Both the position numbers and the translations under genes were made by a program. The notes beneath the pieces were generated by a model that saw nothing but the letters and a program-made list of their open reading frames with translations, was not told the origin of the DNA and ran no database searches. Shown in pieces: positions 14,651 through 30,065 of a stretch of DNA of 64,000 nucleotides. Where the stretch lies: positions 36,952,001 through 37,016,000 of the forward strand of contig OX597827.1 of assembly GCA_951406725.2 (NCBI GenBank). Direction: 5' to 3'. Source of the stretch: Octopus vulgaris (taxonomy: Eukaryota). Positions within the stretch are counted from its first letter, which is position 1. Each line of letters begins with the position of its first letter.

Positions 14651-15038
14651 TTTGGTCACACAAAGTTTATTGGAGGCAGATTTTCTATGACCATTCCTTT
14701 CCTGTCATCAACCCTCAATTGCTTCCAAGCAAGGTAATAATTCCTGTGGTCAGACATATTTCAGTTGATAGGAAAAGAATTATGTTGCCTGTATGATGGT
14801 GTGGCTCATATACAATCATTATATGATGTCAAGACCAAGCAGTGTTCAAACACATGCATACAAAACAGGTTTCTTTCAGTTTCCATCACCTAAAGCCACT
14901 CTAAAGGTTGTGTGGTCAGCTAAAGTAGAAAATACTTGCTGCACAGTGGGACCAAACCTAAGACCACACGGTTGAGAAGCAAACTTCTAAACATAGCCAT
15001 GCTAGCACCTATGCCTATATATATGTATACACATATAC

Positions 15039-15079
<41 letters not shown>

Positions 15080-15485
15080 AAGAGAGAGAGAGAGAAAGAT
15101 CTTTGATGTTTATACATCAATTTTGCTCCCCACCCTCTCTGTCTCTCTTTCACTCTATACGTTTATATATACAGTATAATTTCCCATGATATAAACCCAA
15201 TTCTTTTGTTTTCGTTAATCCACATATATAGTCCACATTTTTTCTCTTCACCACAATGGAGAAAACCTCTACTCTTTAAATGATTTTTTTATGGCATATT
15301 GTTTCTGTGTGCGTGCGTACGCACACACATGCATGTGTGTGTGGTGCATGTATGTGTTTGTGCTTTATGTTTGTGAATATGTGTATGTGAATATGTGGGA
15401 GTTTGTATGTATATATACATATATGCATATAAATATATGCATATATGTATATATACGTATATATATCTATATCTATCTATCCATC

Positions 15486-15541
<56 letters not shown>

Positions 15542-15961
15542 TATGTGTGTGTGTGTGTGTGTGTATGAGCACGTGCATTGTTCATGTGTGTAGAGGTGTG
15601 TATCTGTTTGTGTGTGATGAACAGTATCTAATATAAAAATTAACACACATATCATGTCTGGCTAAATTAATCTTTGGTGTCTGATTTTTCCACAGTTAAT
15701 AACATCGAGAAATATAATGTTCATATCACCAGAACTGCGTGTATATATTTATGTATGTATGTACATGTGTGTTTGTGTATGCATGTATGTATGTGTATAT
15801 GTGCATATGTATATATGTATATATCAATGTTTGTGCATGTGTGTATGTATGTGTAAGTATGCTGGCAAGTATGTATATTAATACTCATACACATATGGTG
15901 GGCTTTGTTATTTGTCATATTTTATGTGGGGTGTAACTGTCTGTCTCTGTCTGTTCGTCTG

Positions 15962-16000
<39 letters not shown>

Positions 16001-16044
16001 TGTAATCTATATGAGTGTGTATAATATATTCGACAAATATAACT

Positions 16045-16468
16045 TTATTTCATCTAGTTTCAGCTCATGAGCTGTGGCCATGCTGGGGTGAGCACAATCA
16101 TGGAGCACTGCCTTTCGTTGAGCAAATCAACCCTAGAACTTATTCTTTCTAAGCCTAGTACTTATTTTATCACTCTTTCGCCAAACCGCTAGGTTACAGG
16201 GATGTAAGCACACCAACATCAACGTCAAGCAATGGTAGAGGGACAAACACAGACAGGCAAGTATGTACACACTCACACACAAACATATATATATATATAT
16301 ATATATATACAACGAGCTTCTTTCAGTTTCCATCTACCAAATTCACTCATAGGGCTTTGGTCAGCCTGAGGCTATAGTAGAAGACACCCAAGTGCCATGC
16401 AGTAGGACTGAACCCAGAACTGTGTGGTTGGGAAGCAAGCTTCTTACCATACAGCCACACCTGCACCT
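16045..16468 (-). mobile_element. Octopus tRNA-derived SINE
   Basis: Reverse-complement match to 54485-54900, including the internal (TA)n. Confidence 0.85.
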
Positions 16469-16868
16469 ATATATATATATATATATATATATCTCCCTCT
16501 CTCTCTCTCATTCTGCATTCTTTTCTCTACAACCATTCCCTTTTTTCTCTCCCTTTCTCTTACTCCTCCTCCTCCCTCCCGTCGTTGACCTGCGATGAGA
16601 ACTCTGCTACTGTCTTTCTTCTCCTGGCTACCTTCAAGTAGAGACAGCACATCTGTTGCTCCCTCGCTGTTCTCAAAAGATAGCGTTCGTAAAAAATTTT
16701 ATCTCGTTCGGCTTAACAGCCCTTCTTGTTTGTGTTACTGTTATTCTCCTTGTCCTGTCTTTTACTGTTTATATTTTGTACTGTCGTTACTGTCCTGTTT
16801 TTGTTACCATTTTTACCCCTCCGCAAAAAAATCTCAAATTTTATTTAATTTGATTTTCACGGGAAGGA

Positions 16869-16944
16869 TTGTTTCATTAAAGTCATGTATCGCCTTGACC
16901 TTCGAAACGTGGAGTAGATGAAACAAAGGCGACTGATGAAGGGA
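16869..16944 (+). ncRNA. Candidate non-circularly permuted hammerhead ribozyme
   Basis: ttgtttcat-taaag-tcatG-TA-tcgcct-tga-ccttc-GAAA-cgtgg-agtag-atgaaacaa-aggcga-CTGATGA-aggg. All core nucleotides are present and stems I and III pair well; stem II is weak. Confidence 0.55.
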
Positions 16945-17155
16945 AATTTTCCTTGTTTTGTATGTCCTGTACTCTATTTTTTCGTTGTTTAAGAAAAATG
17001 TCCATTTTGGTTTTGTGTTTATGTTTTCGTTTCTCATTGTGTTCGACGTATTTTTGGTGTCCTGTACCCATATATGCATGTATATATACATGTAGAGGTA
17101 GTACGTACATATATGTATGTATATATGCATATGTTTTATTTATTTATTAATTTAT

Positions 17156-17204
<49 letters not shown>

Positions 17205-17351
17205 TCATCATCATCATCGTTTAGCGTCCGTTTTCCATGCTAGCATATATATATATATATAAAACAAATTAAAGTTGTAAGGTACTGCACGAGTGAAAAT
17301 ATATATGAAGGAAAGTTTGAAAATGGAAAGGACTTTTAGAGATGTTTATTG

Positions 17352-17393
17352 ACTTAACCAGTTTCACTTTTTCAGAAAAAGATTGTCAAAAGT
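17352..17393 (-). ncRNA. Decayed minimal hammerhead in a (TA)n-flanked PLE-like fragment
   Basis: Minus strand: actt-TTGACAA-tcttttt(ctg)aaaaagt-GAAA-ctgg-TT-aagt. Confidence 0.55.
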
Positions 17394-18030
17394 AAAATGT
17401 AAAGCTTTGTATAAGCTTCCAAGTCTTATGATGCTATCAGCTTCATGTATGCAAACATGGTCATGTATGTATATATGTATTTATGTGTGTGTGTATGTGA
17501 GTGCGTGTGTGTGTGTTGCATGCATGTATATTCACCAACACACATACATTAATTATGCTATATTAAGATTTTACTCTAAAGCTGCTTATATTGCATAATT
17601 TGAATTTTATTCTACTGATGCACCACTTTTTCAAGCCAGTGTATAATTTATACCCCATCTCTATATACTTGTGGCTTGATGATTCAGTTTCACTTCTGAG
17701 AGGACATGAGTACTTCCACAATAATGGCACAGTACAAATCTGAACTCTCTTGGTCACGTTTGGGACAATTTTGTTTTATTTAGCTCAGAAGTATATTGAG
17801 GTTTAGCACAATATGTTTATAAAAAGATTTTCCCAGATGAAAAACTGCGGCATCCAGATTTTTAACGACAGTCATACACTATATATGTAATATTGATAAA
17901 GATTTTATTCTAGAGCTACTTCTATTGCATAATTTCCATATATATATATATTTATATACCTATATATCTGTCCCTCTCTGACACCACTGTTTTTATCAAC
18001 ACCTACAACTACTTCTTCCATGTCACTGAC

Positions 18031-18367
18031 TCCTTCCCTTGAATCTCTAGTAATCTGATTTATTGCATCCTTTGATCTCTTTGCCACTCCCTATACATTA
18101 AATAAACTGATTGGCACATAGCTTACCAGTTTACCAAAGACTTTCCAGACATCTGGCTCAGTAATTACATCCTAGTCTTACACCATTTCCACTCAACTGG
18201 TCATTCTCGGCAACATCGAACTATATTCAAACTGGCCTTGCATAGAGGTCACCCAGACTCTCATCTACGAATTGAGTAGGAATTCATTTTCTCTCTCCAT
18301 ACTTCACATTTCAATCCCTCCCCATACTTCAGTCCCTCATGATCTAAATTCTCTGCCTCTTTTCATT
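18031..18367 (+). pseudogene. Penelope-like element GIY-YIG endonuclease remnant
   Basis: SFP*ISSNLIYCIL*SLCHSLYIK*T...VLHHFHSTGHS...LRIE*EFIFSL, matching PLE EN FTCTSSNLIYCI.C..C..LYIG.T and HF...GHS. The remnant probably extends ~17950-19570. Confidence 0.8.
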
Positions 18368-18644
18368 TATACTGCTCTCCACACACAATTACACACACCA
18401 CCCAACTCTTACATTCCCACTATCCCCTCAACTTCTACCCCTACATGTACATCTACACTACATGTTTAGCCCATTACCTAACATCACATACACTATTTAC
18501 ATTCAAACAGATATACATACACATACACTTTTCTTCTTCCTACTTCACAAACATACCTATCTCCACACTTATAGTAGTAATCATATAATAACACACCTAA
18601 ACTTCCCAACACCTATCATTTTTGTCACCAATATTCCACCTAGT

Positions 18645-18980
18645 GAAGGCACATGGCTCAGTGGTTAGAGCATCGAGCTTACGATCGTGAGGTTGTGAAC
18701 TCGACTCCTGGACTGGGCTGTGTGTTGTGTTCTTGAGCAAGACACTTTATTTCACGTTGCTCCTGTTCACTCAGCTGTAGAAATGAGTTGCGACGTCACA
18801 GGTGCCAAGCTGTATCGGCTGTTGCCTTTCCCTTGGATAACACTGGTGGCGTGGAGAGGGAAGACCAGTATGCATGGGCGACTGCTGGTCTTCCATAAAC
18901 AGCCTAGCCCTGACTTGTACCTGGGAGGGTAACTTTCTAGGTGCAATCCCATGGTCTGTGTCATAAGCGAAGGAGGTCTC
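18645..18980 (+). mobile_element. tRNA-derived SINE with CORE-like domain
   Basis: A box tggctcagtggttagagc, B-box-like gaactcgactcc, then tgtgttcttgagcaagacactttatttc. Confidence 0.8.
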
Positions 18981-19571
18981 AGATTCCACCTAACATTTCT
19001 ATCCAGTATGATGTATATAACATCCTCATAAACACATGCATAAACAGAAAACTGCACAAATGCATACATATGCAGGCATACAGGCATTTACACACACACA
19101 CGAGTACACACAGTACCCACAGTACACACACACATACATTGGATAATCTTATACACATAACATATGTCAAATAGCCTTATACACATAGAAAACATGGACA
19201 CACACTCTCACACACATGTGTATACATATGCACTAACATACGATGTATACATACACACATTAGCTTCATACCCACATGCATTTGCTCATTCACACATGTC
19301 CATTCCATGGCTTTCCCCATAGCCCATCACATCACTGTGATCTGTCACAGTTGTACCCTTTGCTAGTCACACTGCTAGCAACCCCTTCTTCCAGTCATTT
19401 CAGCATGTGGTGACTGTCTAATTGAGTCACGTTTGTTCGTTTTTCTCTCCATTTTTTTTTCTCTCCTTGTCTTTTCTTTCTGTAGAAGAGCATATGCTAA
19501 TTTTTCTGTGTGTAAATCTAATACACTTTGTTTTGTTTTTTTACCTCATCTTAGTATTGTTGTATTATTGC

Positions 19572-28420: not shown

Positions 28421-30065
28421 CCTACTATATTTATATATTATGTAGTTGAGTAGTATATCCTTGATTATGGCATATAACCGATCAGAAAGTTATCATCGAT
28501 TTCATGTCTACTATTGTAATTGACAATATTGGTGACTCATGTCTGCATTTGTTGCTGTTAATTATTTTTGAATAAAGCTGCAGGCTATTTATGACATCAG
28601 TGGTCTGAAAAGACACTGATATTCTATATGTTGTTGAATGTGAGATTGGCTATTATGCCACTATCAGACATCTGCCACTGAAGAGATTGAGCTGGTCAGA
28701 ATCATATGATCTGATATGGCAGTTTCAGTACCTGTAGTAGATGATTCCCTTCTGCCAATAATATAAACTGAGTGCTTTTATGCAACATGCATCTATACAT
28801 GAGAAATTCCAACCATGTTTCATGGTTCGCTACCTCAACAGCTCCAGTGGCTAAAAACATCGTCAGTAGGAACTATGTCTGGTTTCAGCCCCTACTCCTC
28901 TACTGTTTTCGACATATTGAGTGTGTTTTTTCCTTTCTCCTTTTTTCTTTCGTTCTTTGGTTTCTTCGATGCAGTGTCAACAAATGTCAACAGGCGAATA
29001 ATCATCCTGCCAAATTTCCCTTTAAATACTTGCCAGTAGGCTCCAGCAGCCATCACCAGCTAACTGTCACATGATGCTATCTAAGTTTCAACTGGTCAAT
29101 GGAGGGGAAGGACACATACTTTGGCTTGCGGCCTCTCTAAACCAACCTTCCAACAGTGTCTTGTTAGTTTCAGTTCCAGCAGCCAGAGCTGACCAGCTGT
29201 TAAGTGGTACAAGCCTTCAAACCAGGAGGAGGGTGCACAATGAATGAGATTGCTACCTTGGCCCACCTGTCAATCAGCAATCAGCACAATGAATGAGATT
29301 GCTACCTGTCAATCAGCAATGCAGTTTAAGTGCCAGCCAGCCTCACCTAGTGATTCTATTTCCCAATTGGTATATTTAACTCCAGTTTAACCACATCAAA
29401 AGAAACTATTAAAGTTTATTTGTTCATTATACATGGAAGGTGGATTAACATATCCAAGTTGTCTTTTATGTAGCTCTGTATATGTTTCAAATATAGCCCT
29501 AGTAATATGTCCAAGAAATTGCTAAATCAGTGATTTTCACAAGATGAGACTGCCACTATTGGTTGTAATTTAAAATTATATGGGTAAGGAATTTTCATAA
29601 CAGGCTGTCTATTGCAACCATAGTACTTCCTTTATTAGCTTCTTTAATTACCAGTATTGAGTTGGTTTCAATACATTAATAGTTTCCCATTCTTTTGCAC
29701 TGAAATTAGAATGTATCTCATGTTTTGGTAGAAACTCATATGGAAAATAAGTTATATGATTGCAAAGCCCCACTCTCTCATTCTTTCTGTCTGCTTCCTC
29801 AAATCACTTTTCCTCTCTTTTCTCTTTCAATTTTTATATTTGTTAACACTAGTAAGCAACTCACATTTTCCCCTCTACTCCTGAAAAGGAAGGTATAACT
29901 ATGAATATGGTTATTATGTAAGTTATGGCTTCAAGATAAGACCTTACATAATTTTTTTCTCTATAATTTTTTTATTTTATAATCTGTATTTTGTATTCCA
30001 TGTAAATTTATGTATCAAGCCATATTGCATCTATTTACCATGCCACCTCTGAGCATGTATGCATG

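Follow-up and report, generated by a model that had tools for sequence, protein, structure and literature searches.

We present a computational analysis of a 64,000-nt stretch of Octopus vulgaris DNA (hereafter the window) and of a motif within it that is, in our assessment, probably an active hammerhead ribozyme of a new arrangement. Its CUGANGA strand is predicted to be detached from stem II and held by a four-way junction, and it likely cuts the RNA of its carrier element after position 16889, by which the 5' end of the template copied into new insertions would be set. That the motif is more than a chance arrangement is plain from its recurrence.

The whole motif occupies 16816-16944 on the + strand, which is larger than the 16869-16944 of the preliminary description, and its wiring is different. 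From 5' to 3', all on the + strand, the 5' strand of P0 (16816-16820), whose partner is the bases directly after CUGAUGA, is followed by the P0b hairpin (16821-16862; junction-proximal stem 16821-24/16859-62) and by the 5' strand of stem II, GAAGG (16863-16867), which lies upstream of the cut site and in which 16863 is G10.1. Next stand the 5' strand of P4 (16869-16877), which corresponds to the helix 'I' that links stems I and II in Eckert's scheme; a stem III strand with the GUA triplet (16883-16889; triplet 16887-89), the predicted cut falling between 16889 and 16890; and the stem I strand 3' of that cut (16890-16896). The segment 16899-16912 carries the 3' strand of stem II (16899-903), GAAA (16904-07) and the other stem III strand (16907-12). 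After it come the 3' strand of P4 (16918-16926), the second stem I strand (16927-32) running into the CUGAUGA core (16933-39; together 16927-16939), and the 3' strand of P0 (16940-16944), which overlaps a competing local hairpin at 16939-16954. In the window copy the core is intact and two peripheral changes are present; a CpG change breaks one pair in the junction-proximal stem of P0b, and the last pair of P0 is broken. The majority core of the family is CUGAAGA, the window copy carrying U at N7.

The strand order of the motif is cut site, then GAAA, then CUGAUGA, that is S-G-C in the nomenclature of Eckert et al. (PMC10085705). Both the non-circular order and the placement of GUA, GAAA and CUGAUGA given in the preliminary description were thereby borne out, as were the pairings that it had assigned to stem I (16890-95/16927-32), stem III (16883-88/16907-12) and a 9-bp helix (16869-77/16918-26), all three of which covary across subfamilies. 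Rfam hammerhead models gave no match in 15000-19000 of the window at E<=10, nor in 10 loci at the gathering threshold. As a single word, CUGAUGA shows no enrichment in the window (10 occurrences versus 13.4 expected), and the local fold at the motif is unremarkable (z -0.91).

The motif is carried by a 5'-truncated copy (about 16493-17158, + strand, between (TA)n tracts) of an 811-bp non-autonomous Penelope-like element (PLE), designated family A1, in which the predicted cut lies 277 nt before the end of the unit. The element had been described beforehand as young, microsatellite-flanked and probably PLE-related, which stands, with an extent of about 16500-17075, which is too short. At least 2946 candidate copies occur in the 2.8-Gb genome, the best 40 at 96-97% identity. 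The copies possess a fixed 3' end, 5' truncation, a (TA)n target, partial tandems and inverted pairs, and many of them have a tail of about 40 nt; the hallmarks given for PLEs in the consulted part of PMC8557442, namely 5' truncation, partial tandems, inverted 5'-truncated copies, a 30-40 nt tail and a (TA)n target, are thus all found in the family A element. No meaningful ORF and no RT or GIY-YIG frame occurs in the window copy, for which the 811-bp unit is too short, so the element is non-autonomous; an autonomous partner of family A was not found in the flanks of 60 loci. Complete tandem units occur in sister subfamilies (L116/L117 and L179), with spacings of 836 and 926 bp. Just 5' of the element, window positions 16100-16470 hold an older, different dispersed repeat with 75-83% identity to copies in many loci.

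The pattern searches specified nothing but the core words and two pairs of stem III, stems I, II and P0 being absent from the patterns. Core-only patterns in S-G-C order returned 1629, 2815, 2574 and 1257 matches against 146, 64, 202 and 329 for the respective controls, while one further core-only pattern was without excess (144 versus 136). The matches were represented by 18 majority sequences of 1 to 58 copies each, comprising the A group (8), B, C, E, F, G (2), J, K, H and I, and these groups do not align to each other except for a 32-nt match between F and K. The core words CUGANGA, GAAA and an NUH triplet are present in them, and the seven-part architecture (P0, P0b, II, P4, III, I and the core) recurs with different sequences in unrelated families.

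The insertion 5' ends furnish a possible genomic record of cleavage. In family A1, a hand tally of listed rows placed 40 of 44 TA-to-element junctions at or 3' of the predicted cut, 7 of them exactly at it and 4 upstream; these 44 distinct junctions come from the first 100 of 170 rows, with TA-flanked ends as the only visible kind, and 15.6 would be expected at or 3' of the cut under a uniform spread (P 2e-14). The cut position proposed in the preliminary description is in accord with this tally. With a wider pattern, whose loci overlap the A1 tally, 25/25 listed junctions were at or 3' of the cut (P 6e-12); subfamily A3 gave 14/19 by hand tally of listed rows (P 2e-4), and the Naiad family (C) gave 11/23 listed junctions after two apparent duplicates were dropped (P 0.02). 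One-strand counts over the genome found 218 within 30 nt, 20 where the triplet was retained and 59 in the downstream window, which corresponds to about 14 junctions per nt just after the cut, 1-2 upstream (an estimate from the triplet-retained count and the listings) and 2.8 further downstream. Most junctions lie 2-9 nt past the cut and not exactly at it, microhomology blurring the exact positions, and the excess at the exact site has P 0.13 once 3 nt of microhomology are allowed. As many insertions begin at the predicted cut, cutting in vivo is likely; read-through copies are common there, so cleavage would be partial. The junction pile-up is likely the genomic footprint of cleavage, with transcription start at the same place as another possible origin.

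An unlikely alternative is that the motif is a conserved protein-binding or priming structure, derived from a hammerhead and no longer cutting, and that the pile-up marks a pseudo-LTR transcription start or a reverse-transcriptase stop. It would accommodate the spread of junctions over 0-10 nt past the site and the many read-through copies, PLE transcripts are described as starting in the upstream PLTR (PMC6765202, in the part consulted), and a cut in the 3' UTR would sever the template of an RLE element. The core in young copies is no better conserved than its flanks (8/305 versus 145/4418; 22 of 29 intact), which is expected for dead insertions but lends no support for function. Against a non-cutting structure, no family majority sequence has lost a catalytic nucleotide or the NUH triplet, though the flanks do not align; this conservation is partly built into the search patterns, yet stems I, II and P0 lay outside them. 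The edge of the pile-up moreover follows the predicted site across subfamilies that differ in local sequence, and we favour the reading of an active hammerhead.

The departure from known hammerheads resides in stem II. The preliminary description had paired aggg with ccttc, for which none of 4 pairs changes on both sides and the duplex energy is 0.0; outside the A group, the same site makes 0-3 bp in the nine scorable majority sequences. In every multi-copy family, a segment 19-28 nt 5' of the cut pairs instead with the strand before GAAA, and the G10.1-C11.1 pair closing on GAAA is formed through this upstream partner. The stem II sequence varies between families, with a G-C start in every one. 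The bases after CUGANGA find their partner, at zero offset, in a segment that lies still further upstream (P0), the P0b hairpin filling the gap to stem II. Since CUGAUGA runs into P0, a junction of P0, P0b, stem II and the core would interrupt the A9-G10.1 link, and these elements are predicted to form a four-way junction.

Covariation was evaluated on 38 distinct A-group copies, in which 16 of 30 pairs change on both sides and 94.9% are paired, a result reached in 0/500 shuffles; slid controls were 40-46% paired with 2-6 pairs of two-sided change. By helix, two-sided changes were found at 4/5 pairs of stem I, 3/5 of stem III, 5/6 of P4, 2/5 of P0 and 2/4 of P0b. Of the three stems for which a covariation check had been proposed beforehand, I and III show two-sided changes and aggg/ccttc shows none. 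The upstream stem II is invariant within the A group (0/5), its support coming from comparison between families only. A strict junction test, which admits zero unpaired bases at any of the four crossings, was passed by 16 of the 18 majority sequences at <=10/1000 shuffles, with a descriptor devised after inspection of these same sequences. The failures, H and I, are both single-copy; two further majority sequences rest on 2 copies, and A3c passes in a different register.

A plain type-SGC hammerhead, in which stem II is formed with the bases after CUGAUGA at the cost of one extra nucleotide and the upstream helices represent an off state, is considered very improbable. In the A group, the GGGG that follows the core is conserved, can make 4 pairs and is 92.8% paired, and PLE hammerheads can have a base left unpaired 5' of stem II (PMC4209133, in the part consulted). 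Two of the 4 pairs are G-U, however, the duplex energy is 0.0 with no two-sided change, and families B, C, E, F, G and J make 0-2 bp there while their upstream partner makes 5-6 bp in each. The conservation of GGGG is explained by P0, and the detached arrangement with an upstream stem II remains the preferred one.

The scores of single loci were compared with those of metagenome and viral sequences. A stem I score >=11 was reached by 94 of 149 pattern-picked loci, against 5/120 metagenome and 0/120 viral matches listed; both tests were passed by only 47/149 single copies. As a trial of the junction descriptor outside the sequences it was made from, two metagenome loci (L276 and L392), which resemble coral Naiad ends, had a junction score of 47, whereas the other 238 of the 240 metagenome and viral matches listed scored <=33. 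A further metagenome contig (L290) bears another S-G-C motif in which stems I, II, III and P4 are present along with a hairpin; its junction is incomplete (score 26), and the motif runs antisense to an RT frame that is unrelated. A chance arrangement amplified with the repeat, with which the unenriched CUGAUGA, the ordinary fold and the missing Rfam match would agree, is hardly credible in view of the same architecture with different sequences in non-aligning groups and other animals, and is contradicted by the strict junction test, the A-group covariation and the metagenome matches.

Structure prediction provides an outline of how the RNA could fold. Without pseudoknots, the window copy forms the P4-III hairpin and P0b, and families B, E and G1 form P0 too; stems I and II measure 5-7 bp in all families. 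For the A1 majority sequence, the unconstrained fold is at -42.0 versus -36.0 with P0 enforced, the local hairpin outcompeting P0 by about 6 kcal/mol. A competing downstream hairpin had indeed been noted in the preliminary description; its competitor is P0 and not stem II. In the proposed mechanism, the nested fold of P0, P0b and the P4-III hairpin would form first, leaving two short strands free in the multiloop and two in the apical loop. The strands of the hairpin loop would then dock onto those at the base of the hairpin itself to create stems I and II and the core. A partial cut after 16889 would produce the 5' end of the template RNA, so that insertions would start at or just past the site, and reverse transcriptase would be supplied in trans, most likely by a Naiad.

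Docking could take place between two copies or within one. We lean slightly towards a dimer, as in partial-tandem transcripts, and PLE hammerheads are thought to act as dimers in the parts of PMC4209133 and PMC6765202 consulted. A monomer is a plausible alternative that falls somewhat short of an even chance; a rough estimate of reach from crude geometry would allow it in A1, C and F and forbid it in B, E and G1 with P4 intact.

The same design was found at the 3' ends of Naiad PLEs. By eye, family C matches the 3' end of the published Naiad_Ovul consensus (PMC8557442 supplement), and in the consulted part of that supplement the design is visible in the consensi of three Acropora Naiads, Naiad_Obim and Naiad_Ovul. 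It is also visible by eye in supplement parts 9, 12 and 19, to which hydrozoan, cubozoan and crustacean names were assigned from the file order. This survey covered 60/81 CGAAAC and 60/62 CTGATGA places, with 13/23 and 13/25 for two other cores, and in the parts surveyed several Naiads, bivalve ones included, show no such design. Naiads were reported without canonical hammerheads, the consulted part of Craig et al. (2021, PMC8557442) giving only loose 'HHR_core / HHR_half_core' notes. Family A has the ribozyme design and the target in common with Naiads and does not align to family C; no Naiad ORF, which would have an N-terminal GIY-YIG, CxC and RT, was seen beside 30 family C loci. By eye, the nematode Naiad entries (parts 13-15) have complete stems I, II and III around a core whose order is C-S-G, a type (CSG) known to Eckert from two sequences in the consulted part of PMC10085705. 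Two entries of the hemichordate region (parts 25-26) have a common structured-looking 3' sequence, with no hammerhead core in the passage seen.

A second class of carriers is formed by families B, E and I, in which the motif lies downstream of an ORF with RT, zinc knuckle and PD-(D/E)xK nuclease (nuclease motifs by eye). These RLE-type families are presumably members of the HERO clade. The RLE ORF (P0001) matches RVT_1, its best solved match being the R2 protein, and Pfam gave no name to the RLE fragment. The motif is intact behind the ORF in 22 of 30 ORF-picked RLE loci. At one locus (L240, G000:C2:57491500-57498500), a near full-length RLE element directly follows a 564-bp copy of its own 3' end with the motif, an arrangement that resembles, in this one example, a PLE pseudo-LTR. 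Many family B copies are without the upstream stem II strand, and a G run often stands in place of the G/C tract that bears stem II. In L062 and L155, a second GAAAC, conserved at the very 3' end, follows a small hairpin some 80 nt beyond the family B motif on its 3' side. The window itself holds, at 28843-28909 on the - strand, a decayed copy of the family B motif at the 3' end of an RLE-type element. Viewed by eye, family B (L061-L090) and a Naiad entry in supplement part 12 (cubozoan region; PMC8557442, part consulted) have an almost identical middle section of the motif, which hints at a possible exchange of the module.

Taken together, a wider reading can be offered tentatively, as one that we hold possible but somewhat doubtful. 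The motif would rank as the seventh hammerhead arrangement in nature, its catalytic core containing a four-way junction, and as a module by which Naiad PLEs of several animal phyla routinely process their RNA and which moved between Naiads and RLE non-LTR retrotransposons. Cutting would require head-to-loop docking of two copies, with the result that tandem transcripts undergo processing and lone ones escape it, and in nematode Naiads the rare type CSG, another form of this reversed ring, would be in use. For its part, the detached arrangement would overturn the explicit assumption that CUGANGA and stem II cannot be separated, extend the non-circular permutations, known from a few hundred metatranscriptome sequences, by thousands of copies in animal genomes, and account for the apparent absence of hammerheads in Naiads. 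The 5'-end pile-up would offer a direct handle on the role of PLE hammerheads in retrotransposition, an open question in the consulted part of PMC8557442, and a 3'-UTR ribozyme common to two retrotransposon orders would be unexpected.

Among known systems, the circular order C-G-S of canonical types I, II and III is not that of the octopus motif. The closest is type SGC (Eckert et al. 2023, PMC10085705), which, in the part consulted, has the same S-G-C block order, a 2-4 nt linker between stems I and II, a helix joining the other ends of these stems and continuing into stem III, and two core pseudoknots. Block order, short linker and joining helix are all found here. The octopus motif differs in that the link between CUGAnGA and stem II is replaced by P0 and P0b, with the ends of the RNA lying in P0, and in that the joining helix (P4) is tied to stem III by both strands. 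Eckert et al. assume, in the part of PMC10085705 consulted, that CUGAnGA and stem II are inseparable by more than 1-2 nt; as stem II here does not lie within that distance, the motif resembles SGC in its working without being classified there. Its strands follow the reversed ring of types SGC, CSG and GCS, a ring that is here predicted to be opened between A9 and G10.1.

The consulted part of the main text of Eckert et al. (PMC10085705) mentions no octopus, molluscs or retrotransposon hosts. The accessible part of Perreault (2011) describes core insertions in hammerheads, none of them of this kind, and that of Forgia (2023) adds nothing on this arrangement. Neither this arrangement nor any permuted hammerhead in a retrotransposon was described in the literature that our search reached; Weinberg (2015) is cited for extra-helix hammerheads, so partial prior art for an additional helix is possible.

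With regard to the carriers, Naiad PLEs are alike in their partial tandems, inverted 5'-truncated copies, 30-40 nt tail and (TA)n target; unlike them, family A has no ORF, and the full permuted fold is undescribed in the consulted part of PMC8557442. The minimal type-I PLE hammerheads (Cervera and de la Pena 2014, PMC4209133, part consulted) also reside in the repeated 3' part of a PLE and are proposed to be dimers, but they are circularly permuted and their helix III is short and palindromic, whereas the octopus motif has a helix III of 4-6 bp and the reversed order. The non-LTR retrozymes, as described in the consulted parts of PMC7229834 and bioRxiv 10.64898/2026.07.22.740005, are similarly non-autonomous, ribozyme-bearing, PLE-related repeats; they are multimers of 170-400 nt with type-I hammerheads and circular RNA, while the octopus element has an 811-bp unit, mostly partial tandems and the permuted motif.
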